From assembly GCF_006345805.1 (NCBI RefSeq), contig NC_043003.1, forward strand, positions 107,260,001-107,324,000: a stretch of DNA of 64,000 bases, written 5' to 3'. This document shows positions 42,143-58,888 of the stretch, piece by piece. The notes below the pieces were generated by a model, which saw only the letters and a list, made by a program, of their open reading frames with translations, was not told where the DNA came from and searched no databases. The translations under genes were made by a program, and so were the position numbers. Source of the DNA: Octopus sinensis. Taxonomy: Eukaryota. Each line of letters opens with the position of its first letter. Position 1 is the stretch's first letter.

Positions 42143-42312
42143 CTTTTTTGGCGTTTTAATTTCGTCGAAGGCAGCATTTTCTTATCTCTTTCATTCATCG
42201 CTAATTACGGGCACCTGTTGACATTAATTGTGTTAATTGTGTACAGCGGTTGCTAACGACACTCTTCAGCGAAGAAGGCGCGCTTCAACATTTACCCAGA
42301 AACCAATTTGGT

Positions 42313-42338
42313 TCCTTTTCCGGTTACCATTGAAAGTG
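42313..42338 (+). promoter_or_regulatory. RPL35A: RPL35A TCT/5'TOP initiator and non-coding exon 1
   Basis: tcCttttcc matches the YYC(+1)TTTYY TCT motif of ribosomal protein genes (putative +1 at 42315). It is followed 24 nt later by a consensus donor G|GTGAGT at 42339 and lies 1.7 kb upstream of the first coding exon. Confidence 0.75.
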
Positions 42339-44072
42339 GTGAGTTGTATCTTTTACGTATGTCTCTTATTTTTCTTCATTATTCCCACTTTTAGGTACAT
42401 ATTTTAAATTAATTACAATTGCACATTATTGTATGAACGTTCGACTGTATAATAATTATGATTTAAATCAAGGATGGGATACAACAGTCTTGATTTAAAT
42501 CGATATTTCCTATCATTAACGTATAACACGCTGCCATCACAAATGATCAAATATGAATTTTTCTTCACTTCTTCGCTGATTTCTCGTTTTCCCCTCTTGT
42601 TTTACCAGATGTTTCTTCACAGATGCTTCTTTATTCATTAGTAATTATGTCCTATGCCAATTACTCCCCTATTATTTCAACAAATGCATGGAAATATTCT
42701 TATTTCTCGTCCACTTTGTAACCCCCCCCCTTGATATTTAATTATCCTTTATATTTCATTATTATTATTATTATTATTAATTGCACCTCGTGGTAAACTA
42801 TAATTAAATGTTGCTGTTTATGCAAAGTATTACCAGAGGTAAGGATTCGAAGTGGTTTGTAAATTGGCGAATAATGAGAAATGGTCTTCCTCTCTTCTTT
42901 GCTGTCTCAGAAAATGTATTTCTCTGCCATTCCTCATCTCCACCAGTTTATTAACTTCTTGGGTGGAATGTGTTAGGTTAAGGTTTATATAATGTACCTC
43001 TTCTCTTCACGGTTGATTTCAAGAGTTTATGTTCAGATGTAGGGGATAAATAAAGTACCAGTTTCCTTACTGTATTTCTGTTGAGATGCTCTGTGTTTCT
43101 TTCAGTTGATTTTAAATATAACAAAGAATTTAGTAAAATAACTTAGTTATCATTAAGCTAGTGTTAGGAACATAAATTGTGACTAAGGTTTGGTGGAAGA
43201 TTTTAATTCAAAACTTAGAAAACAAGACATTTATACTAAAGAGCCAGAGGTGGTATCAAAAGGGTTAAATCAATCATTTGTTAACCCTTTTGTTACCATA
43301 TTCTTGTTGAGATTCTCTATTACTTTAAATATAACAAAGAATGTAGTAAAACAACTTTAAATTGTGACTAAGGTTTGGTGGAAGATTTTAATTCAAAGCT
43401 TATGTTTAGCCCCTTGTGGGCAGTAAAGAAATATATGTTCAGATGTAGGGGATGTGTTTCATTGTGGAATAAAAATGGAAATCAATCTCGAACAGGAGAC
43501 GTACATTGAAAACTAACATTCCATAAAAATTAGATTTTTGGATTATGTTCGCCGTCGACTTGTTTATAGAAGCATGTGGAAGCGACATTATAGTTCTTCG
43601 ACTCTCGAAAGACAAACTGTTTTGCCCCTATAAATAAGATACCACGATGTATTCCTGGTACGACGGACGACTCGATAAAAAAGGGGACAAAATAAGAAGC
43701 ATATCCCATTGTTTCGGTCTGTTTGTCACATCAAGTATATAACACGTGCAGTTTTATAGAGTGACTGGAAGGACATAAATCTTCAATGTAGATTCTTTTT
43801 TTTTTAAACGGGATACGGTCAAACATGTATAAATTGGAAGATACTTGGGACGGATTCTAACGTTCCGAGCAAGGGATCTCTTCAGAGAAAGAAATGTCTA
43901 GTAGAACGGCTAACGAAATTATATCTTATATTCAGAATTATTCAGAGACTTTTAATTACCTGCTGATTTCTCTCTGAGAGAAAGCTATCCTATATTTATT
44001 TGTTTTTTTACTTATAATTACTGTTGTAAATAGATTTTGTTTTTAATCCCGTTTCCTTTCTCTCAGATTATC

Positions 44073-44146
44073 ATGTCGGAGGGTGAGGCAAAAGCAGCGC
44101 CAGCGGCCAAATCGAAAAAGAAGACCCCAAAACGAACACCTGGCAG
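44073..44146 (+). CDS. RPL35A: 60S ribosomal protein L35a (eL33), coding exon 1
   Basis: Acceptor tttcctttctctcag|attatcATG. Encodes MSEGEAKAAPAAKSKKKTPKRTPG+AG. Donor gtaat at 44147; phase 2 joins the next exon in frame. Confidence 0.9.
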
Positions 44147-44324
44147 GTAATATTATTTATGCATAGTCCATGTGTTCATCACTATATCAATATTTACAAT
44201 GTTAGGTGCAATTATTTTGTTTTCTGTTTCGATGTATCATTAAAGCGAATGAAAAGTTGCAAGACGAAATTAAACAGTCCAAACGGGATGTATTTAGTTT
44301 CTGTATAGCGATGCGATTGTATAC

Positions 44325-44650
44325 TTTTACTTGTTTCAGTCATTTGACTGTGGCCATGCTGGAGCATCGCCTTTAGTCGTGCAACTCGACTTATTCTTTG
44401 TGAGCCCAGTACTTATTCTATCGATCTCTTTTGTCGAACCGCTAAGTGACGGGGACATAAACACACCAGCATCGGTTGTCAAGTAATGCTAGAAGGACAT
44501 ACACGCATACACATATATACGACGGGCTTCTTTCAGTTTCCGTCTACCAAATCCACTCTCAAGGCTTTGGTCGGCCCGAGGCTATAGCAGAAGACACTTG
44601 CCCAAGATGCCACGCAGTGGGACTGAACCTGGAACCATGTGGTTGGTAAA
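44325..44650 (-). mobile_element. SINE family A in RPL35A intron 2
   Basis: Near-full copy, antisense to the gene. Confidence 0.9.
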
Positions 44651-45130
44651 CTCCTGTATATGTATTATTTCTGGAAATTTTACCTTGTAAGCGAACATGA
44701 ACGGAAGGGTGAGGATTAGGCGGTGCACAGGATTTTTATAATTTTAGTAAATAACAGTTGAACATAGGACAAATAAAGCTGTTTGCATGTTGCTAAAATT
44801 CTTGCATTCTGATCAGATGAAACATTTGCATCATTATTTTAGCTGCTGGTCATTTGTGTTTTGCTGTGGCCAATATTCTTAAAACGAGATCCTTGGAGTC
44901 TTGTTCTGTTATTATTATTCACCCATAACAGAATTTAGGTTTTTTGGCTTAACTCACCAAATTAAAGTTTTGTCAATTAGACTGGGAGTCAGATTTCTAT
45001 GTTCCCATAGCAACAATTTTAAACTAAGCTTTGAAGACTACGTGATGTTAGTATATTCAAGAAAATCATGTATGAAATGATGCACATGGCTGCCCAATAG
45101 CCCTCAGACCACACCTTGCTGTTGTATATA

Positions 45131-45271
45131 GGTACTTGTATCGCAGGCGTAGGCAGTCGATCCTACGAGCTGACTGGCGCGTACACGATATATACTTGTA
45201 TGGCACGTCCCCGATTGGCTAGCACGGACGCGTGTGTGCGCGAACCGGGACCACTCTGCGATACAAGTACT
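45131..45271. mobile_element. Short Merlin-type MITE in RPL35A intron 2
   Basis: TIR ggtacttgtatcgcag / ctgcgatacaagtact; flanks ttgtatata / ttgtatatg; shares the subterminal ccgggaccactct with the 40192 element. Confidence 0.7.
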
Positions 45272-45272
45272 T

Positions 45273-45303
<31 letters not shown>

Positions 45304-46359
45304 CCATCGGGTTGACTATGCTAGGAGGCTGCACCAGACTCCAATCTGATCTGGCAGTGTTTCTAAAGCTGGGTGCTTTTTGCATGCCACTGGCACAGGA
45401 GCAAGTCAGGGTGAGGGGGCAGGCAGCGACCACATTCAGATGGTGCTTATTGCATGCCTCCAGCATGAGGGCCAGTCAGGCGACACTGGCATCTGTCACT
45501 ACAATTTCCGTTTTGATTGTGGATTGATATTATTTTAATGCTGATGTACTTGAGCAAAGCATGTCGCCCAATGATCCAAAGGTACTTTTTTTTAAGTGGG
45601 CTGGTTATGTGACATTGGTGTAGGCTACAATTGATCTCACTTTACTTGCTGGGTCTTCTCAGTCACAGCATATCTCCAGGGTTCTCAGTCTTTCGTCATT
45701 TCTTCTGTGGGGCCCAACATACAAAGGTCATGCTTCACCACCTCATCCCATACCTTAGATCTCTCTCTACCACAGGTTCTTTCCACTGATTGGCAGTGAT
45801 ACGTCTTCACACAGCTCTCTTCATCCATCTGTAGTACATGACCATACCAGTGCAGTTGTTTCTCATGCACATCACATCTGATGCTTCTTATCATCATCAT
45901 CATCGTTTAACGTCCGCTTTCCATGCTAGCATGGGTTGGACGGTTCAACTGGGGTCTGGCAAGCCCGAAGGCTGCACCAGGCCAGTCAGATCTGGCAGTG
46001 TTTCTACAGCTGGATGCCCTTCCTAACGCCAACCACTCCGTGAGTGTAGTGGGTGATTTTATGTGCCACCGACACAGGTGGCAGACGGCCACGCCCGGAT
46101 GGTGTTTTCTTATGTGCCACCGACACAGGTGCCAGACGAGGCTGGCGAACGGCCACAATCGGATGGTGTTTGTTACGTGCCCACAGCACGGAGGCTAGTC
46201 GATGCGGTACTGGCTACGGTCCCGTTCGGATGGTTTTCTTATGTGCCACAAGGATACAAATTCCATTGATGTTCATCTATTTTGGTTTGATTTGATTTTC
46301 AAGATTTCTCTCAGGTCGCTTACACTGTCGTGTGTGCACACTGACATCACACATCATGC

Positions 46360-47643
46360 TAGCTTCATGTCCCAATCCATGCGGTCTTTTCCCGTTATAC
46401 TTTTTATCTGTGTAAACATCGAAGTTTACACGGTATCCTGTCTCCAATTCACAAACTTCCCATTCCTTGATCCCCATTTAGTAGGTTTAGCAGGCATGTA
46501 CTGCTAAAAATGTACTCTGCCCTTATAGCCTATCATGGTTTCATCTACACTGAGATTTTTCCCAGGTAAATAAATAGTTTTATAATTATGTACGAGTAAA
46601 TCAATTACAGGACGTACTTTGTGCAGGGGATCGTAGTTTGGGTCGTTTTTGCTGGGGGCATTGGCATAATCAGTTAAATGCAAATACTGAGATATTTTCA
46701 AATACCTTGTCTGTATGGTTCGATCCCGCACTTAATTCAGTCTCCAATCAAATTCACAAAGGTTTGATTGGTATATTATGAGTGCTACAGCATTATTGAC
46801 TTAATTAAATGCAGCTTTTCTAATAAACGCTGTCAGAATTAAATTCAGACAATTTTCTCATTTTGTGAGGTGGCGTACCTGCTCCAATACTTCATTAGAA
46901 AGTTGTCTGTTGGGCTTCGTGGGGCGGGGTTGGATGCTCGAAATATATGGATCGCCATACCTTACATCGGGTCTCCAATAGTTCCACATTCGAGGAAGCT
47001 GTTTAACTCCAAGCATAATTTTAATTGCGAAAAATGCTCTCATTTCTGCAGTATTAGTTGGCTGCCATAGCGGATCGTTTCTTCCTCGGACAGAAATTAA
47101 GTGTTGCGCATATTTGTTCATTTCCTCTGCAACATTTTCAAAAGAACTTTCAGGCAAAAATAAAAATAGATAGTCCAGTGGTTGAGCAACAGGAGGTAAA
47201 TTATGGCGAGGACCAGTGTTTTCTGTAAAATCAGAAATTGTGACTGGTGTCGTAATTTTCGACCATGTTGCCTTGTTTACAATATTGTTTTCATCAGTTT
47301 CGTTATGGAAATCTTCGTCCGACGAGTAATCACTGATATCAATATCAGGTTCATCTGAAGTCAAAATGCTTTTCTTTTCATTGATATCTTCAAAGTCGGA
47401 ATCGATACTTGCTGACGTCATTTCTTTCACAACAAACATATACACATGTGGTCTAAACAATTTCACAGTATTTATGCTTGAATAAAGGCGGGAAAGGCTC
47501 CATCTTGCATTTTCTCAAAGCTACGAGAATTTAATGTGACTTATTTTTTTTTGTGATTTCATAGAGCTGTCTGATACAGCCGGTTTGAACAAGTAAAGGG
47601 GAATTAATTTTGGCCAGTTACGGCCGGTTTGAACACTAAAGGG
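46360..47643 (-). mobile_element. piggyBac transposon fossil (PGBD4-like transposase) in RPL35A intron 2
   Basis: Terminus ccggtttgaacactaaaggg|tgaa (degenerate TTAA) with a subterminal repeat at 47580. Motifs PLDYLFLF, EMRAFFAI, YLHL, KVRPVID, LSVDETMIGYKGR, YMPAKPTKWGIK. Internal stop, 3' truncated and interrupted at 46711-46933. Confidence 0.93.
46727..46854 (+). ncRNA. Box H/ACA snoRNA-like RNA, copy A (RPL35A intron 2)
   Basis: Hairpin gcactta/tgagtgc plus ccaatcaaa/tttgattgg; H box ACAGCA (46787-92) 15 nt below the upper stem. Second hairpin with gcagc/gctgt; ACA (46849-51) 15 nt below it. 128 nt, sense to an RP host gene. Confidence 0.72.
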
Positions 47644-47808
47644 TGAAACGACAATGATGTCTGCTGTGGAAGCAATTCAGTAAGGACCGGCAGGTAAAAG
47701 GATTATCATAGATGGAACTACCAATGTGAAATGTTTTTTAGGCTTTAATGTTAGTTGTGTCAACATTAATTTAGTCAGAAGTTATATTGTTGTTGTTATC
47801 TATTTCAG

Positions 47809-47961
47809 ACTCTATGTTAAAGCTGTGTTCACAGGCTACAAACGTGGTTTAAGAAACCAGTATGAGCACACTGCACTCTTGAAGATTGATGGTGTTTATA
47901 AAAGAAATGAAACTAGTTTTTACCTTGGCAAAAAATGTGCTTATGTATACAAGGCAAAGAG
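47809..47961 (+). CDS. RPL35A: 60S ribosomal protein L35a, coding exon 2
   Basis: tttcag|A CTC TAT...; (R)[50 protein letters not shown], classic eL33 sequence; donor gtgagc at 47962. Confidence 0.97.
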
Positions 47962-48224
47962 GTGAGCTTTATCTTTTTTTCTTTTAAAAAACGACAGGTG
48001 GGGGTGTTTATGTAACACTGTATTGGCCCCTACATCGTCGTGGAGGCCCCTTACAAAGTGGTGCTTTCTGCTCATGCATGCCGCTCGGCAACTGTACGAG
48101 TCCACCTGATGTTTGTGGAGCTTGTACTTTTGGTATTCTGCATTCCCTACTCTCCACCCTCAAATTAACGCATTTTAAATATGCTCAGAAGAACTCGCTG
48201 TAAGGTCTCTGTATGGTTCGATCC

Positions 48225-48352
48225 CGCACTTAATTCAGTCTCCAATCAAATTCACAGTGTTTTGATTGGTATATTATGAGTGCTACAGCATTATTGGCTT
48301 AATTAAATGCAGCTTTTCTAATAAACGCTGTTAGAATTAAATTCAGACAATT
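48225..48352 (+). ncRNA. Box H/ACA snoRNA-like RNA, copy B (RPL35A intron 3)
   Basis: Near-identical to copy A; H box ACAGCA 48285-90, ACA 48347-49. Differences are in the apical loop, an A-U to G-U stem swap and one pocket base. Confidence 0.78.
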
Positions 48353-50672
48353 TTCTCATTTTGTGAGGTGGTGTACCTGCTTCAATACTTCATTAGAAAG
48401 TTGTTTGCTGGGCTTCGTGGGGTGGGGTTGGCTGCCCCACAATATAGAAGCTTCAGTGACCTTCATCCTAAAGCGTGACTTTAAGATAATTAACATACGA
48501 CAACTGGTGATTTGGTTTCTAAATCTCTGGTGAGAACCATTGGGTGTGGTTGAGTTCTTAAGGACCTGAATTGCTATCATCATCATTTAATGTCTGTTCT
48601 TCCTGGCACGGGTTGGATGGTTTGAAAGGAACTGTACCAGGCTTCATTTGTCTGTTCTGGTGTGAGTTCTACAGCTGGATGCCCTTCCTAATGCCAACCA
48701 CTTTACAGTGTGTGTGTTGGGTGCTTTTTACATGGCACCATTACCAACATCATCATCAAAGCAAAATCTCTCAACTCGGAAGTGGGTGGCTTTGTATCAG
48801 TTGAGAGATTAAGTGTATAGAGGTGTTGGGACGGGTATCTTGCTGTAGGGTGGATGCATTGATAGACCAGTTAGAAGGGAAGGGACTAGTGAGAGAGATG
48901 GTAGATTGGGAGAGGTAACTCAAGAAGCTGCTGGGTGGTGCAGTGTCTATAAATCTCCGGATTTTTGGAGAAGGTTCAGATTTTGATGAAATGCAGTTAA
49001 TTTTACATGCTGTATCATCATCATCATACATTTACTGCATGAGTTTTTGATGTTCTTTAGGAATCTGTTTTGTCGCTTTCACCTGCCCAGGTGTGTTGTT
49101 GAATATCGAAGCTTGTAGGTGTTTTCACTTACATTTTCAGGATCTCAATCTCCGTCTTGGGTTTCTTGCCTGGAAGTTGCACACTTGGCATCAGGAAAAT
49201 CATTCCAAGATATGCCTTCAGTTCCTCCAGGTGTTTTGTATTGTCCAGCATATATGTGCTTTTATCGTTTACTTGTTGCACCCATCAGGTTACGGTCATG
49301 CTGGTGCACTGTGTTATAGAATTTTTGTTGGTCTCTTGTACAAAGCCACTGTGTTACATTCTCTTTCCATCTACCAAATCCACTCACTCGGTGCACTCTG
49401 TGAGTCAGAATGTGGTTGGGAGACGAGCTTCTTGTCTCACACCCATCCCTGCCCCTATTTCTGCAGAAATGTTTGTTTTTTCCCCCCTCTCTATCCTCAT
49501 GGAAGCATCATCATTAACTATATGGATGCTCCACCCCAAGAAGTCCTGGTATCATTCACACTGAAATACCATTCTAAGTGTTTCCTTGAAAACCAAGCTC
49601 TCTTTCTATAAAAGTGACTGGTTTTGTATTTTGGCACAAGGCCGCCAATTTTATGGACGCTGTTCCTTATCTTGTTGACCATGGCGGAATTTGAACTCAG
49701 ATTGGAGACGGTTAGCATGCCACTAAACGTCCTCACCAGCTTCTGAACCAGCCACATGCAAGATTGAAGGGGAATAAAAAAGAAAGATTTTTGGTAAGCG
49801 GTTCCCATGTCAGCCACATGGTTGAAAGATCAATCGCACAGCATGATAGATGGTTATATATCTTCTATTATGGCATTGGGCCAACCAATAGCTTTGAGGT
49901 TGGGTTTTGATGAGAGGAAAGGAAAGAAGGCTCTCACATGTGTGTGTGTGTCTCTGATCCTGTAGCGTAGTGGTTTCTTAAAAGAGGTCAACTGAATATG
50001 AACCCAGGTCAATTTCTTTGACTAAAAGAAAGATGAAGCGTAGATTCTACAAGCTGGGAGTCTTGTAAAGTTTGGCTGGGCTCACCTGGACCGCCCTTTT
50101 CGTACTGCATTGATATGTGGTTCCTTATTGTAGAGGTCTTAGAGGATTAAGTTGCTGGTGGCAATGGCGCCTGCCTGGCCCTCGTCCCGCACTCCTCAAA
50201 GCCCTAAAACTCCTATACCAGGGCCTCACCACCAGGTCCAGTTTCAGGTCTTTCCCAGGACCCTCCATACCTCAACAGCAAATTACAGCTGCAGCGTATG
50301 CACTATCGAATGCAGTTGCTCTCCCAGTGGGGCATTTGTCAAATCTTCAGGATGGATTTTTGGGCCACAAGCTGAAGTATGACTTTGGCTGCTGGAATGG
50401 ACAGGAATTCACCAGTCCCACTCTCCCCTTGTGAGTGCCACTGAAAGTACTGCAAAGGACTATTTTCTGAGGGACACTTCCACAATCGGTTATAAATATG
50501 CCTGAGACAAACAAATAAATGAAGTATTATGCTGCTCCTTATAGTGTTTACCTGTTCGTCAGCTAATTATGAATTAACCAGATTTCGTTGTCTCTCAATT
50601 GATAACTTGTAATCAAGAGTTCAATTCCACTTTTTGTCTTTGTGTGTCTCTTGTACCCCGAAAGGATTACCA

Positions 50673-50803
50673 TGCACTTAATCAGGCCTACAATCAAAGG
50701 GTCACTGTTTTGGTTGATGGAATAATAAGTGCCACAGAAAATTGGAATTTTTCTATAGTGCAATCATCTAAGTGGTGCCTGTCGCATAAAATTCCAGACA
50801 AAT
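50673..50803 (+). ncRNA. Box H/ACA snoRNA-like RNA, copy C (RPL35A intron 3)
   Basis: gcactta/taagtgc plus caatcaaag/ttttggttg; H box ACAGAA 50734-39; second hairpin tggaatttt/aaaattcca; ACA 50798-800; 131 nt. Confidence 0.78.
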
Positions 50804-53233
50804 TTAAGTGTAAATTTTTTTTTTTATCTCCTTCCATGATTGTTGTAGGTGCAAGGTTTGCCTGTGTGGTGAGTGCAATCACCACCGTTTGACATCTGGT
50901 GTTGGTGTATGTATGTAGCTTAGAAGTTCAGAAAGGCCAACTGATGGAATAGGCATCAGGTTCAAAAACCAGTAATTACAGGGTTTGCTTCGTTCCATTA
51001 AAATTCTGTGTTTGTTCTGATAATTAAATATCAAGCGTCGTTTTACTAAAATGTCAAGAGCAAGAACTCTGGAGCTTTGGAGAAGGTTAAGATTTTGGTG
51101 AAATGCAGTTAATTTGGCATGCTGTATCATCATCATCATCATACATTTACTGCATGAGGTTTTGTTGTTCTTTAGGAATTTGCATTGTCAGTTTCACCTG
51201 CCCAGGTGTGCTGTCGAATATCGAAGCTTGTAGGTGTTTTCACTTACATTTTCAGGATCTCAATCTCTGGCTTGGGTTTCTTGTCTGGAAGCTGCACACC
51301 TGGCATCAAGAGAATCATTCCAAGATATGCCTTCAGTTCCTCCAGGTGTTTTGTATTGTCCAGCATATATGTGCATTTATCATTTACTTGTTGCACCCAT
51401 CAGGTTACGGTCATGCTGGTGCACTGTGTTATGGAATATTTTTTGGTCTCCTGTGCAAATCCACTGTGTTACATTCTCTTTCCATCTACCAAATCCACTC
51501 GCATGGTGCACTGTCAGTCAGAATGTGGAACAATGTGGTTGAGAAACGAGCTTCTTGTCTCAAACCCGTCCCTGCCCCTATTTCTACAGAAATGCTTGTT
51601 TTTTTTTCCCCCTCTCTATACTCATGGAAGCATCATCATCAACTGCCTAGATGCTCCGCCCCCGAGAAGTCCTAGTGTCATTTATACTGAATTGCCATTT
51701 TAAATGTTTCCTTCAAAACCATGCTCTCTTTCTATAAAAGTTACTGGTTTCCGATTTTGGCACAAGGCCGGCAATTTTGGGGAGGTTGGTCCTTGTTTTG
51801 TTGACCATGGCAGAATTTGAGCTCAGAACGAAGAGACATTTAAGATGCCACTAAACGTCCACACCAGCTTCTGAACCAGCCACGCGTAAGATTGAAGGGT
51901 AATAAAAAAGAAAGATTCTTGATAAGAGGTTTCCATGTCAGCCACATGGTTGCAAGATCATTCGCACTGCATGACTGATTGGTTAAATACCATTAGAAAG
52001 GGTATCAGGCTGTAGGAGCTTTACCCAATCAGATTGGCGCTTGGTGCAGTCAAACTGTCCAACCTATGCCAGCATGGGAGGTGGACGATGTAACAGTGGC
52101 CCAGTTAACAAGATCATCATTTAGCATCCGCTTTCCATGCTGGCATGGGTTGGATGACTTTTCTGGAGCTGGTAAGCTGGATAGCTGCACTTGGCTCCAG
52201 TCTGAATTTGGCTTGGTTTCTATGGCTGGATGCCATTAGGTGTCACTATCATGGAAGCATCGTTTTCCAGTTATGTGGTCTTGGGTTCAGTCCCACAGCA
52301 GACCACCTTTTGTTGTAGTCCTCTGTTTAGAAAAACTTTGGCAGTGGATTTCGTAGGTGGAAAGTGAAGTGTTTGTGTGTGTGCAGAGCCTGGTCTTGAG
52401 AGGTTTTTGTTGTACATAAGCAATGTTGTTGTTTGTCTGTGGTGTTCCATGTAAAACATTGTCTGGTCCTTAGAAAATATTGCTTCCGTAAATTCCATCT
52501 CACACATGCAGGTACGGAAAAAGTGGACTTTAGATCGGTTGGGGGTTGGGCTTTGTCAGTTTTCTAATTGATGATATATCTTAGTTGTCATTCAGCACAG
52601 GTGGAGAGTTCGTGTTCAGGGTTCCACGTGCATATACGCTGCACTTTAGGTCAATCCAGCAGTTGGGGAACTGGAACTCTGTTGGGTGTTGCTTCTGGGA
52701 ACAATATTGGCTAAGTTGTCCAGCACTCCTCAAAGCCCTAAAACTCCTATACCAGGGCCTCACCACCAGGTCCAGTTTCAGGTCTTTCCCAGGGCACTCC
52801 ATACCTCAACAGCAGATTACAGCTGCAGCGTCTGCACTATCGGATGCAGTTGCTCTCCCAGTTGGGCATTTGTCAAAACTTCAGACCGGGTTTTTGGGCC
52901 ACAAGCTGAAGTATTACTTTGGCTGCTGGAATGGACAGGAATTCATCAGTCGGAACCAGCCCCCACCCTCCCCTTGTGAGTGCCACTGAAAGTACTGCAA
53001 AGTTATTTAGTAGCAAAGGACCGTTTTCTGGGGAACACTTCCACAGTCGGTTATAAATATGCCTGAGACAAACAAATAAATGAAGTATTACGCTGCTCCT
53101 TATGGTGTTTCCCTGTTCGTCAGCTAATTATAAATTAACCAGATTTCGTTGTCTCTCAATTGATAACTTGTAATCAAGAGTTCAATTCTACTTTTTGTCT
53201 TTGTGTGTCTCTTGTACCCTGAAAGGATTACCA

Positions 53234-53362
53234 TGCACTAGTCACATACTCAATCAAAGGGACACTGTTTTGGTTGATGGGGGGGTAGTGCCACAGAAAA
53301 TTGGAATTTTTCTATAATGCAATCATCAAAGTGGTGCCTGTCGCATAAAATTCCAGACAAAT
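53234..53362 (+). ncRNA. Box H/ACA snoRNA-like RNA, copy D (RPL35A intron 3)
   Basis: gcacta/tagtgc plus tcaatcaaag/ttttggttga; H box ACAGAA 53293-98; same 3' hairpin as C; ACA 53357-59; 129 nt. Confidence 0.78.
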
Positions 53363-53762
53363 TTTAAGTGTAAATGAATTTTTTTTTTTTTTTTTTTTAA
53401 CACCCTTCCATGATTGTTGTGGGTGCACTGTTTGCCTGTGTGGTGAGGACAATCACCACCGTTTGACATCTGGTGTTGGTGTATGTATGTAGCTTAGAAG
53501 TTCAGAAAGGCCAACTGATGGAATAGGCATCAGGTTCAAAAACCAGTAATTACAGGGTTTGCTTCCATTCAATTAAAATTCTGTTTGTGCTGATAATTAA
53601 ATATCAAATGTCGTTTTACTAAAGTGTCAAGAGCAGGAACTCTGGAGCTTCCGGGTGAGTGTCTGGTCAATGCAAATGTGATTCGTTGTTCAGAATGTTC
53701 CTTCTGCAAAGTATAATCTACGAATATGTTTTGTTTATTATTTGTAAATATTTTCATTGTAG

Positions 53763-53910
53763 GAAAACAAGAATTCCAGGCACCAAAACTGCAGGTCACA
53801 TTCGTATAATATGGGGCAAAGTCACCCGTCCCCATGGAAATAGTGGTGCTGTACGTGCAAAATTTAAGAAGAATCTACCTGCTACCGCTATTGGAAGACG
53901 CATCCGAGTT
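53763..53910 (+). CDS. RPL35A: 60S ribosomal protein L35a, coding exon 3
   Basis: tgtag|G AAA...; (R)[49 protein letters not shown]; donor gtaagt at 53911. Confidence 0.97.
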
Positions 53911-54041
53911 GTAAGTGAAGAATGTTTTATATGTTGCTATTCTTGGCATTAGTTGATTTGGAGATGCTTGAAAGAGGAGCGGGTTCGGAAATTTTGGTGG
54001 GGGCTGAACAAGATGTGTACAAAGATTATTGAGAGTTAGAT

Positions 54042-54420
54042 AGGCGTAGGAGTGGCTGTGTGGTAAGTAGCTTGCTTACGAACCACATGGTTCCGGGTTC
54101 AGTCCCACTGCGTGGCATCTTGAGCAAGTGTCTTCTGCTATAGCCCCGGGCTGACCAATGCCTTGTGAGTGGATTTGGTAGACGGAAACTGAGAGAAGCC
54201 TGTCGTGTATATATATATGTGCGTGTTTGTACCCCTAGCATTGCTTGACAACCGATACTTTTACGTATGTTTACGTCCCCGTCACTTAGCGGTTTGGCAA
54301 AAGAGACCAATAGAATGAGTACTGGGCTTGCAAAGAATAAGTCCCATGGTCGATTTGCTCGACTAAAGGCGGTGCTCCAGCATGGCCGCAGTCAAATGAC
54401 TGAAGCAAGTGAGAGAGAGA
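54042..54420 (+). mobile_element. SINE family A in RPL35A intron 4
   Basis: Full copy, sense to the gene. Confidence 0.9.
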
Positions 54421-54989
54421 GAGTTCCTGAGTTTAGCATGATGGGTCGGTCCTCAGCCCTGTCCCTTATCAGTCCAACGTGCCATCACAGTGGAGTTAAA
54501 CACTGGATGTGTAAGGGGAACTATATATCAATTGTTTGGGAGTGACACTACTTCACACGTCTCTCCTCATCCATCCGTATTACATGACCATGCCTGTGCG
54601 AACGTCTCTCTAGCACGCCACGTTCTTTATGTCCAGCATTTATTGGATAGGAGATGGCCAGTTTAAATGCTAAGGGTTTACAGGTTTTGTCTGGTTCCTA
54701 GTAACAACCATTCATTAATGCACTCAAATAGAAATTGTAGTACTGGACGATGCTCGTGTCACTTGACTGGCTCCCTGTGCTGGCGACACATAAAAAACAC
54801 CATCCAAACGTGGTTGATACCAGCATGGGAAAAATGGGTGTTAAGCGTTTGTGTGGTCCTAAAAGTTAATAGGGCCCACTTGACATTCTTGTGTTTGATT
54901 TGTCCCCTCTCACAGTCACCATGTAATTATTACCCATAAGTAAAATATTTTCTTTGGGAAGTTTCAATTTGTTCTTTCTTTTCTTTCAG

Positions 54990-55013
54990 ATGTTGTATCC
55001 ATCAAGAATCTAA
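54990..55013 (+). CDS. RPL35A: 60S ribosomal protein L35a, last coding exon
   Basis: ttctttcag|ATG TTG TAT CCA TCA AGA ATC TAA = MLYPSRI*, the conserved eL33 C-terminus. Confidence 0.96.
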   Translation: MLYPSRI

Positions 55014-55025
55014 AGACATGTAAAA

Positions 55026-55031
55026 AATAAA
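55026..55031 (+). terminator. RPL35A polyadenylation signal (second AATAAA at about 55126)
   Basis: AATAAA 12 nt after the stop codon, followed by a T-rich tract; a short 3'UTR is typical of RP mRNAs. Confidence 0.75.
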
Positions 55032-55284
55032 ATGTTTTCCAATCTATCTCTTCTTTTCTTGTTTCTTCTTGGCACTAAAATGCCTGTGATGACGGCAGGT
55101 TTCTGGTTTTCTTTATTTCATCAAAAATAAAATTCTGGTTTGTTTGGAGCTGATAATCACATCTTTTATCCATCTCAGTGCCAGTATTGCTGCCGGTCTC
55201 TCTCTTCCATTTAGTGTCCCTCTTCATTATCATGATAGTTTTCTGTAACAGAACCATTGTTTGGTTTTCTGCAGGTTGATATGA

Positions 55285-56290
55285 AAAGCATAAAGTCCAA
55301 GTTAATGGTTCGCTGTCCGACGTCTCCACTGCGATCAGTGGTGTGCCTCAAGGTTCAGTGCTTGGGCCCTTATTGTTCTTAGACTTCATAAATGTCTTGC
55401 CCGACGACCTCGTGCAACACACACTTCCATTTGCCGATGATGTCAAACTGGTTGCTCCTTGCGGTGATGTGGATGATCTTCATCGATGCCTCAACCAAGT
55501 TTGGAGATGGTTTAACGAATGGGACCTGTGTCTGAACGTGTCAAAGTGTTGTCATCTGCCTTTTGACTCTTCTCTTGCAACTCAACTTGATTTCGAGCCA
55601 GGTCGTCTACTGCTAGAGAGGACCGACCAGGTAAAGGACCTGGGTATCTTGTTGGATTCTTCCTTTTCGCCTTCGGCCCAGTGCGTCCATACTGCCAACA
55701 AAGCATGCGGAGTTATGTTTTTGATTCAACGGTCATTCGGAATGCTCAGAGCAGCCATATTCCTACCGCTCTGTGTCCCACTGGTGAGACCCCATTTTGG
55801 TGTACCGGATTCAAGCCTCTTCTCCTTATCTCCTCAAAGACATACATCATCTCGAAAGAGTCCAGAAGCTGGCTACCTATATAGTTCTTGGTCTCAAGAA
55901 TTTGTCTTACAAAGAAAGGCTGAAGGCACTCGACCTTTATTCTCTAGAAAGACGACAACGCTGTGGTGATCTCATTGTTGCTTACAACATCACAACCGGA
56001 AAGTGTAACCTCTCGAAAGAGCTGTTCTTCACTCATGCTCCAGAGTGTCGGCTGCGGGGTCATTCCGAAAAGCTCTATCTGCGACGATTTCATCTCAATC
56101 GAAGGAGAGGGGCTTTCTCCGTTCGGGTTGCGGATCCGTGGAATAAGCTGCCGGACGAGATAGTGAAGATGCCGACGACCGCTCGGTTCAAAGTCTCTCT
56201 TGACCCGAAATGGCATGAACACCACCCTGTACATAACTCCATGTCACCCTACATGGCCTTGCTTTTTGAGCCAAGATATTAAATTAACTT
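55285..56290 (+). mobile_element. CR1-group LINE, 5'-truncated RT and 3' end
   Basis: KVQVNGS..SGVPQGSVLGPLLFL.FIN..FADDVKL..KDLGI..LERVQKLAT..LRGHSEKL..FSVRVADPWNKLP; frameshifted. Confidence 0.92.
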
Positions 56291-56706
56291 GTGCATGAAA
56301 GATCTGTCATCAAATCTAGGACAAGGGAGTTAACTCGGTTTTCGTGACTACAATATTGGGGCAGATGCAAGTTCTTTGGCATCTTTGAGCATTTCGTTGC
56401 TTTTAGAACCCTGCGCATATTACACTAGGTTATGCAAAGACAGAATGGCAACCCTTAATGTTAGATTGTGGTTTAATATTAGTTTCCGGCATGGATAAAG
56501 TGAATTTTAGGGTAGGTATGAGAAGCAAGGTTTAGCCACTTTGATCAAAACGGTTTTCTCAAAGTTGAAATATTTTGTATTCAGTCACTCCCTTTCAATA
56601 AGAGAATTGTTCATAGAGATAGTTGGAAGTTTTATTTTGGGACATATTTTAAAGTTAGAATTTCTCATCTCGACTGTGTGCTGTTTCAGAGCCTTTTGGG
56701 GATTAA

Positions 56707-57720
56707 CCCTTTCTTTACTAACCCGGCCGAGAGAACCTATTATTTAAATGTAAATTTGAACCCAAATTTCGTTGGTATATTCATTAAGACATGTGATTTC
56801 ACTTTGTAAATAGTTGGGTTATAGTATCCGACATTGCTTGAAGTGATATCTCAACTGAATTTTGGGAGATTTTTTTCAGCATCGATTTTTCTTCAACTTT
56901 AAATGGGATAGGAGCTTCATGTTATCAATAATTGATTCCGAATTTAAAGCTTTTTCAATGGAATAGGATATTTTTTTATCCGAAAGCAGTGATTCCAAAG
57001 AGCCAAGGCAGCGGTGGCAGCAAAGACGATTTTACATTGGAATGAAGTAAAAAGCTTTAAAAATGTTTTTATTAGCAATTTTTCTGAGGAGATCTATAGT
57101 CTTTCGTAGGAAGCGAAACCATTAGACTTTCATTTTATTTCAGTATGCTTGTTTGGAGCGATCACTGTGGAAGCCAAACTATTTCGCAGACTGTAAACAA
57201 ACACAAAATGGGGGATCAAAGTTCGGAAAGTTTGTGAACCAAATACTGGGTACTGCATGGATTTAGTTTTTATACAGGGAAACTAATGTTAGCGTGGTCT
57301 GGAATTTATCACTTCCATACCATAACCAGGGCCGTATATTATTTTTTGACCGATTTCTTTAGTTCGGTCAAACTTGCAGTGGATTTCAGTTTATTCCACC
57401 TTTATGGTACACCTGTTGTGCATTAAATTCAACTGATCTAGTGATGTGCACAATTCTTCTTTATCAAAATTTTGTTGCATACCCATTTGAATATTAGCTG
57501 ATGATTCATTTTCTATGATGTTTAAACAAAATTTTAATATTTTTACCTTTTGCTCAATTTACCTGTAATTAAAGTCAAGTTATGCAATAGAATTGATTAA
57601 GAACCCTTTCTTTAATCATGTTCCAAATATCACATTAAAATGCTGATAAGTAAAAAGGTTACAGTTATTTAATTGAAACTCATGAGGGGTGTATTTTGGT
57701 CAAATATAGTAACGGAAGGG
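56707..57720. mobile_element. Non-autonomous piggyBac-type element (longer relative of MITE family P1)
   Basis: TTAA|ccctttctttactaacccggc ... gtaacggaaggg|TTAA; the left end matches the reverse complement of the 9857 terminus. Confidence 0.75.
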
Positions 57721-58241
57721 TTAAAGAGGTAACCACATCCATTTATAGGAGATATGCCTATTAAATGAAATAGTTGTTTTTCAATACTTTTATTGTATTG
57801 TTTAACCCTTCAGTTACTGTATTATTTTGAGGTGTTCTGTGTTTCTTTCAATTTCAAATATAAAGAATTTAGTAAAGTTATTTCAGCTAGTGCTAGGAAC
57901 ATAAATTGTGACTAAGGTTTGGTGGCAGGTGTTAACGAGTCCTGAATTCTGGCCCACTTTGTATGTACACAAACACTTGTCACAACTCAGACCAGCCAGG
58001 GGTGTTGCCACACGTGGTAGAAGGTCCATGGTGAAAGGATTGTCTGCCATGTCCCGGCTAACAATTATGTAATGAGATGAGACTAACGTACAGACAGGCT
58101 TCATTCAGTTTCCCCAAAACCACTCACTATCATTAGCTTAACCCTTTAGCATTCCGATTATTCTGTCTAATGCTTATCTATTCATTGTTTGGAATTGATT
58201 ATCCATTATGTCATCTTTGAGGTCAGATTCGGTTAGTTTAA

Positions 58242-58451
58242 CCCTTTAGTGTTCGCATTATTCTGCCAAAATTTATGCTTTTTCATCCACATTGTTTGAA
58301 CTAATCCTGCATTATCTTGTAGTGATGAGATTTTGATGAGGTAGCTGTTAATTTCTAAAACGATATTGTAGGGTTGGTGTGAGAGACCAGATCTGGCCAG
58401 TTTGCACATAAAACAGGCAGAATACTCTTGGCCGGTTTAAATACTAAAGGG
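58242..58451. mobile_element. piggyBac-type MITE (family P2) nested in another P2 copy (about 58142-58495)
   Basis: TTAA|ccctttagtgttc ... ggtttaaatactaaaggg|TTAA; related bodies at about 1606-1790, 59960-60100 and 60300-60370. Confidence 0.8.
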
Positions 58452-58888
58452 TTAAAGAATAGAGAGGTATTTGGGCCGGATGAAATGCTAACGGTTGGGG
58501 TAGAAAGTCGAAAATGCAGTGGAACGAAGGCTCATTAGTTTGGAAACGAATTTGTTAATGACACAACCAGGAAAGGATGAAATAATAATCTATAAGCACA
58601 GGGCCTGAAATTTGGGGGAGTGGATAGGATAGTCAATTGCATCGACCCCAGGGTTTCTGTTGACCTTGGCAAAATTTGAACTCTGATGGTAGTAACGAGC
58701 AAAATACCACTGAGCATCTCTGCCAGCTTGCTGTTAACATATTCAAGGTAGTCACCCTAACCACCACAACAAAGGAGCCAAAGATGTTCATGAGGTTACT
58801 CAATGCTAGAAATAGCAGCTTAAAACAAAGAGAAAGGAAAACCTGATCAATTGCAGTTCAATAACATTAAAAACAAGTTCTGAATTTT

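Follow-up and report, generated by a model that had tools for sequence, protein, structure and literature searches.

Two neighbouring introns of the ribosomal-protein gene RPL35A in Octopus sinensis carry nearly the same segment with a predicted H/ACA RNA in it, and one of the two segments lies inside the reading frame of a piggyBac transposase. This raises the question of how a predicted guide RNA came to be copied whole from one intron into the next. We analysed the locus within a stretch of 64,000 nucleotides, here called the window. Alignment of positions 46710-46933 with 48208-48431 showed that 214 of 224 positions are identical without a gap (95.5%; 10 mismatches, offset 1498, BLASTN E 7e-103), and BLASTN found no third copy of the segment in the 64 kb window. 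These results bear out the near-exact copying of 46711-46933 from the next intron that an earlier note on this DNA had described. The inserted segment is 222 nt long, or 224 nt if the single shared base at each end (46710 and 46933) is included.

46711-46932, plus strand: inserted segment, 222 nt, copy of 48209-48430
48208-48431, plus strand: donor segment, in the next RPL35A intron

The exons of the host gene were placed as follows.

42314-42338, plus strand: probable non-coding first exon, with a 5′ TOP-like pyrimidine tract and a splice donor after it
44067-44146, plus strand: first coding exon of RPL35A (ATG at 44073), placed by its splice sites and resembling the N-terminus of Argonauta RPL35A
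47809-47961, plus strand: RPL35A exon between both snoRNA-bearing introns, Pfam Ribosomal_L35Ae E 8e-21
53763-53910, plus strand: RPL35A exon, Pfam Ribosomal_L35Ae E 1e-17
54990-55013, plus strand: last coding exon of RPL35A to the stop codon, placed by its splice sites

The 50-residue RPL35A exon had its best match, among 463 hits, in Argonauta hians (96%). The new copy (copy A) lies in the intron 44147-47808 and the donor copy (copy B) in the intron 47962-53762, both in sense orientation, in keeping with the proposed sense-orientation move into a different intron of the host gene. The copy extends beyond the predicted 129-nt RNA by 16 nt of intron sequence on the upstream side and by 79 nt on the downstream side, the latter agreeing with the earlier estimate of about 80 nt. 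The surroundings show further rearrangement. The copy-B intron contains a tandem segmental duplication of about 2 kb (48955-51077 and 51067-53650, 87-89% identical), indicating that the locus has been duplicated more than once. A LINE reverse transcriptase fragment (55280-56279; RVT_1, E 3.5e-11) lies just 3′ of RPL35A, followed by another piggyBac remnant (56703-57724, plus strand), which is more diverged and has TTAA-CCC ends and short tblastn matches. The whole window (1-64000) holds dense SINE-like repeat families and long simple repeats.

Copies A and B differ at 10 sites, three of which are clustered in one loop, and the other seven are transitions; two of the sites are CpG. This transition-rich pattern argues against an assembly duplicate. 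The two copies can be told apart within the RNA at five diagnostic sites (46759, 46760, 46762, 46799 and 46834). Separately, A-to-I editing of an antisense template was considered for the five differences with C in copy A and T in copy B, and it was rejected, since the contexts lend it no support by the sequence preferences of ADAR and two of the five are CpG sites.

To describe the copied RNA, the two predicted H/ACA copies were delimited as follows.

46726-46854, plus strand: predicted H/ACA RNA copy A (new), with hairpin 1, H box 46787-46792, hairpin 2 and ACA 46849-46851
48224-48352, plus strand: predicted H/ACA RNA copy B (donor), with H box 48285-48290 and ACA 48347-48349

Both copies folded into the hairpin-hinge-hairpin-tail arrangement with each hairpin unbranched, the H box (ANANNA) in the hinge and the ACA 3 nt from the predicted 3′ end, and both pockets lie 15 nt from their box in copies A and B (expected range 14-16 nt). 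A geometry scan of 42300-55100 on both strands, using standard rules written after the RNA had been seen, returned four hits. Copies A and B were the most stable of these, and on the plus strand no other hit had both of its pockets at 15 nt. Only 1 of 1000 shuffles passed the H/ACA geometry and none of 1000 was as stable, while the z-scores of whole-RNA folding ranged from -1.2 to -3.3, one boundary choice giving an alternative fold. The H/ACA anatomy proposed earlier for copy A within the segment is thus borne out by folding and by the geometry scan. The two weaker scan hits, at 48331-48462 (minus strand) and 53647-53770 (plus strand), are probably due to chance, and one of them overlaps an exon. 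In the predicted folds, the upstream flank 46711-46715 can pair with 46786-46790 over the H box, likewise in copy B, and this pairing could matter for precursor processing.

Rfam searches gave no hits at the gathering thresholds over the whole window, and only chance-level hits at E up to 10 over 43-57 kb. When 161-nt windows were searched, copy B matched SNORA14, SNORA19 and ceN126 and copy A matched SNORA19 and ceN126, all at E >0.1; in both cases the highest-ranking families are of the H/ACA type and cover the same 129 nt. For SNORA19 (RF00413), copy A scored 21.2 bits (E 0.14) and copy B 18.5 bits, below the gathering score of 80 bits. The CAB box motif UGAG, by which scaRNAs are recognised, was absent from both terminal loops. 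We regard it as very probable that the sequence represents a real H/ACA RNA family.

The landing site of copy A is a piggyBac element on the opposite strand.

46933-47421, minus strand: piggyBac transposase, N-terminal part (ATG at 47421 to ...YGDPYISSI), Pfam DDE_Tnp_1_7 E 1.1e-10 and tblastn
46361-46710, minus strand: continuation of the transposase (TRYLKISQYLH...), with a stop at 46504-46506 and a frameshift near 46474
47622-47647, minus strand: terminal inverted repeat of the piggyBac element, with its start at 47643 and with TTCA in front of it where TTAA would be expected

Membership in the piggyBac group is indicated by the DDE_Tnp_1_7 transposase; one terminal inverted repeat is present, beside TTCA, and the other end of the element is missing. 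The transposase homology stops near 46361, and the remainder, comprising the 3′ half and the second terminal repeat, is gone. The remaining terminal repeat, at 47643, is shared with a MITE at 58238-58455 that has TTAA on both sides. Relatives of the transposase are mostly labelled Octopus sinensis or O. bimaculoides. The intronic copy resembles the Octopus PGBD4-like piggyBacs in its DDE_Tnp_1_7 domain, in its identity of up to 88% in the conserved part and in the CCC-start terminal repeat shared with the TTAA-flanked MITE; unlike them, it is interrupted, carries a stop and a frameshift and lacks the 3′ half. The transposase reading frame is identical on both sides of the insert, and the stop and the frameshift come after the insert.

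The empty site was read from the protein sequences of 13 fetched relatives out of 14 transposase homologues (P0015 being left out); a pattern search matched 10 of the 14, and P0003 and P0006 were read by eye. Exactly three residues separate the ISSI-like from the TRY-like motif in 12 of the 13 relatives, the thirteenth starting at that Met, and the residues are M-S/L-K in all eight Octopus-labelled relatives. The three-residue empty site implies that 222 bp were gained and three codons lost, and we infer this 9-bp loss from the transposon on the basis of the protein relatives. The use of other family members to define the empty site, as had been suggested, was thus successful at the protein level. 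The proposed split of the transposase at ISSI | QTRY needs correction: the frame does continue on both sides, but the Q is encoded by the insert, and the relatives read M-S/L-K.

The junctions of the insert were then compared with the flanks of the donor.

46933-46947, plus strand: right-hand transposon flank, which agrees with the donor flank 48431-48446 at 11 of 15 bases with one gap
48403-48440, plus strand: G-rich tract and short hairpin at the right breakpoint of the donor (G4Hunter 1.76, window 48407-48431)

Neither a flanking duplication of 4-20 nt, as a target-site duplication (TSD) would leave, nor an A-rich tail was found at the insert, in agreement with the earlier observation. The right-junction match, scored over a length of 15 nt that was picked after the match had been seen, was equalled by only 2 of 7984 sites within 2 kb and by 14 of 25457 in the gene. 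At lengths of 12, 18, 20 and 25 nt, 18-37 of the 7984 sites were as good (rank 0.2-0.5%), and at 8-10 nt the match was only among the top 4-5% of sites. These results constitute good but not overwhelming support for homology at the right junction. The transposon letters, not those of the donor, are retained across this imperfectly matched stretch, which we propose is because the right end of the transposon primed the synthesis. The left flank showed no match to the donor flank of the right-junction kind. Neither the match on the right nor the 16 nt of upstream flank had been mentioned in the earlier note. The earlier note had named tctgtatgg as a possible microhomology; this is donor sequence and is rejected by the M-S/L-K empty site, which leaves 1 nt of shared bases, or 3 nt should the lost codon for Lys have been AAG, the form taken by 3 of the 15 Lys codons in this piggyBac element. 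The junction homology, scored on the present-day and not the ancestral transposon DNA, thus amounts to 11 of 15 on the right and 1-3 nt on the left. The right breakpoint of the donor falls in the loop of the short hairpin and coincides with the end of a G4Hunter cluster; the gene has four such clusters, and copies A and B account for two of them. The tract and hairpin were spotted after the fact.

A local template, a target deletion (from the protein relatives) and the lack of a TSD were all found at this insert. Together with the lack of a tail and the short, imperfect homology, they point to a templated insertion in break repair and not to a snoRNA retroposon (snoRT), of which the classical form is spoken against by the missing TSD and A-rich tail. 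A one-step local templated insertion, with DNA and RNA templates taken together, appears quite likely to us. Our main reading, to which we assign a probability of about 0.55, is that the 222-bp copy is a templated insertion made while a germline DNA break was being repaired, that its template was most likely the sense DNA strand of the donor at a distance of 1.5 kb, and that it replaced 9 bp. Of the earlier proposal of a DNA-level or pre-mRNA-templated insertion from 1.5 kb away, the local templated insertion without retroposon hallmarks is supported, and on the evidence of this one sequence DNA is a likelier template than precursor RNA. In the main reading, the right-hand broken end, a minus-strand 3′ overhang, would have annealed imperfectly just 3′ of the G-rich tract of the donor, would have been extended leftwards across the snoRNA on the sense template, and would finally have been joined to the left end via 1-3 nt of microhomology. 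Such a course would belong to the class of aborted SDSA, theta-type end joining or MMBIR. The G-rich non-template strand of a highly transcribed gene may plausibly have been exposed as the DNA template.

The same break repair could also have used RNA in cis as its template, either RPL35A pre-mRNA still being made or an intron intermediate already trimmed in part, reverse-transcribed from the minus-strand end; the intermediate would have had an almost mature 5′ end and a 3′ end stalled just past the G-rich tract and hairpin. On a sense template, priming would indeed fall to the end whose match is longer, and the copy begins only 16 nt upstream of the predicted mature 5′ end and stops at a strong G-rich structure. 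The tight bracketing of the RNA favours this template somewhat, since a random 224-nt template within 2 kb would contain the whole predicted RNA only 2.4% of the time, and the window offers a LINE reverse transcriptase fragment. The short 5′ flank and longer 3′ flank recall the Type-2 snoRTs described in excerpts of PMC1687206, but snoRTs begin at the mature 5′ end according to the same source, and tail and TSD are both absent here. Moreover, the intermediate is a hypothetical one, and local DNA template switching is, in our judgement of relative frequency, the commoner route (PMC7407515 and PMC8654963, in part). An RNA template therefore appears possible but unlikely. A still bolder version, rather more doubtful, would have an intermediate of snoRNA processing, which had stayed at its own gene and whose end was set by the G-rich structure, reverse-transcribed in cis into a break 1.5 kb away, with copy A now the better-conserved guide with one pocket for 28S and one for U2. 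If true, a route that is templated by RNA and leaves neither tail nor TSD would explain why snoRNAs often reappear whole in neighbouring introns.

A product exactly like the observed one, with its direct orientation and 1.5 kb spacing, would also result if microhomology had first led to a tandem duplication of 46933-48431, the 153-nt exon included, and a second step had then deleted all of the first unit but the snoRNA segment. The right-junction match would then be the duplication junction, the duplicated exon would be selected against, and the 2 kb tandem duplication in the next intron provides a local parallel. Tandem duplications with a median of about 1 kb arise from failed SDSA in C. elegans, as excerpts of PMC8654963 report. 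The deletion, however, would have to start within 9 bp of the left edge of the duplication and spare the whole snoRNA, and two events would be required, with an intermediate stage that would probably harm a ribosomal-protein gene, which makes this course decidedly improbable. The earlier note had named other family members carrying the segment as the finding that would speak for transposon cargo, that is, for a piggyBac copy that acquired the segment earlier and then hopped into the intron. DNA transposons can carry host fragments, but insert-derived residues were present in 0 of 14 transposase homologues, a junction-region search gave no candidate among proteins of 102-328 aa, and all three hits among 1.84 billion representatives matched the transposase part only. 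This protein-based test is weak, because interrupted copies are rarely annotated as proteins. A chance landing 570 bp from the donor would be very unlikely, and this proximity makes cargo highly improbable. Equally slight is the chance of an assembly artefact or of classical LINE-driven snoRNA retroposition. Octopus genomes are repeat-rich, which speaks for an artefact, but the 10 differences in 224 positions described above and the clean junctions with a 9-bp loss speak against it, and a tail, a TSD and a mature 5′ end are all lacking.

We next considered the state of copy A and the timing of the insertion. None of the differences falls in the boxes, in pocket 1 or in the stems of hairpin 1, and at 46799 and 46834 copy A has Watson-Crick, SNORA19-like pairs where copy B has G-U pairs. 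The copies differ at 5 of 129 positions in the RNA versus 5 of 95 in the flanks (p 0.75), and outside the loops at 2 of 114 versus 5 of 95 (p 0.25), and neither comparison gave a significant sign of purifying selection on the RNA. Six of the seven polarisable single changes fall tentatively on copy B, an asymmetry of rate that is not significant (p 0.125) and whose polarity is partly assumed. The new copy looks intact and is a predicted guide. As to the order of events, the transposon differs from the majority of the eight Octopus relatives at 18 of 158 residues, which corresponds in simulation to a divergence of about 5% in bases, an upper bound that includes subfamily differences. Copies A and B differ by 4.5% summed over both lineages, or roughly 2-3% per copy since the duplication. 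The larger divergence of the transposon is consistent with the transposon being older, and we strongly infer that it was inserted first and that the duplication came later. The earlier statement that the insertion must postdate the transposon agrees with this order, but the "must" is too strong for evidence of this kind, which falls short of proof.

The candidate targets of the two pockets were compared by eye with chicken 28S, human U2 and fly U2 only, none of which is an octopus sequence.

46735-46778, plus strand: pocket 1 of copy A, with arms at 46735-46743 and 46772-46778 and no difference from copy B, candidate guide for U2 or 28S
46801-46840, plus strand: pocket 2 of copy A (arms 46801-46810 and 46834-46840), candidate 28S guide

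The 5′ arm of pocket 2 contains an exact 9-nt complement (9/9) of a site that occurs once in the chicken rRNA file (PMC2653536), and this 28S site is used by the 3′ pocket of GGgACA17, the chicken counterpart of ACA19/SNORA19. The 3′ arm makes only three pairs adjoining the 28S site, with three extra unpaired bases; the three pairs are all Watson-Crick in copy A and include one G-U in copy B. The minimum-energy fold pairs the 28S-complementary arm into the lower stem, which counts against 28S targeting. Pocket 1 has two candidate targets, a position adjoining the Sm site in U2 snRNA and the 28S site served by the 5′ pocket of SNORA19. Its 3′ arm agrees in 6 of 6 letters with a human U2 antisense primer, right beside a UU that we take to correspond to U91, and in fly U2, 6 of 7 positions immediately following the corresponding UU pair with its 5′ arm. 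In each of the two species the opposite arm does less well, with 4 of 6 positions paired, and on the 28S site of the SNORA19 5′ pocket the fit is 9 of 12. The arm motifs of pocket 1 had no exact match in the chicken rRNA file, where line breaks could hide one, and the predicted U2 target motif was contained in none of the paper texts, where no U2 or rRNA of a mollusc turned up either. The 28S and U2 targets are therefore to be taken as leads. Were it processed out of its intron in the usual manner of intronic H/ACA RNAs, copy A would supply a further dose of a guide for pseudouridylation. The likeliest target of such a guide would be the 28S site of the SNORA19 3′ pocket, with U2 snRNA as an additional possibility.

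Two known guides invite comparison. SNORA19/ACA19 (RF00413; chicken GGgACA17) ranks first or second among the Rfam matches, over all 129 nt, its 3′ hairpin stems are similar, the 5′ arm of pocket 2 complements the same 28S site, and the 3′ arm starts alike in copy A. Against this likeness stand the 18-21 bits where the gathering score is 80, the host gene, which is RPL35A here and EIF3A for SNORA19, a different pocket 1 that fits U2 about as well as 28S, and the mere three pairs of the pocket-2 3′ arm. In human U2, Psi89 and Psi91 are made by SCARNA1, as stated in excerpts of PMC8763049, and pocket 1 of the octopus RNA could address the equivalent U2 position. Unlike in SCARNA1, this would involve the 5′ and not the 3′ hairpin, the canonical UGAG CAB box is lacking, and SCARNA1 is absent from the Rfam matches.

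Cis-duplication of snoRNAs into neighbouring introns has been reported for chicken (PMC2653536) and sponges (PMC3412847), with nematodes and platypus cited there as further cases. The octopus case shares with these the sense paralogue in an adjacent intron of the same host gene, the ribosomal-protein host and the degree of similarity, about 95% identity here and 94% in the sponge RPL13A pair (PMC3412847, in part). It differs in having landed in a transposon fossil with relatives that show what the empty site looked like, which makes the 9-bp loss and both junctions legible. The snoRTs of types 1-3, as characterised in excerpts of PMC1687206, have an A-rich tail, a TSD of 7-19 bp and a mature 5′ end. 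The octopus copy resembles Type 2 in joining a snoRNA copy with part of the downstream intron, and snoRTs in general in its insertion into another mobile element. Unlike snoRTs, it has no A-rich tail and no 7-19 bp TSD, it is accompanied by a target deletion, its donor is 1.5 kb away, and 16 nt of upstream intron precede the predicted 5′ end. A likeness in form is also offered by the templated insertions of break repair (SD-MMEJ/TMEJ, aborted SDSA, MMBIR), as treated in parts of PMC7407515 and PMC8654963. Like these, the octopus insert copies nearby sequence, with a small target deletion, short or imperfect junction homology and a G-rich tract at the breakpoint. Unlike them, it is a whole RNA gene, and 222 nt is long for typical polymerase-theta insertions.

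In literature listings outside subscription journals, neither this RNA nor any snoRNA in an octopus RPL35A gene was on record, and the same held for cis-duplicated snoRNAs with junctions resolved within a DNA transposon, although supplements of papers could hold such a case. The locus is a well-supported example of a process already known, with an unusually legible insertion scar and with an RNA for which no Rfam family reaches threshold. Duplication into neighbouring introns has been described as the main route by which snoRNA families grow, while the embedding of snoRNAs in introns was called "still enigmatic" in the chicken paper (PMC2653536, in part). The duplication itself is known; what is new is a base-level record of the mechanism. 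Usually cis-duplicates are too old, or their landing sites too anonymous, for the mechanism to show, whereas here the relatives of the transposon supply the empty site, so the junctions become readable. The scar, with its small deletion, neither TSD nor tail, and imperfect homology at one end, points to break repair and not to retroposition or unequal crossing-over. A general method is suggested by this locus, namely to seek snoRNA copies inside repeats of known consensus. Although it is a single case, in which copy A is a guide by prediction, it provides an unusually legible record of how guide RNAs likely multiply.
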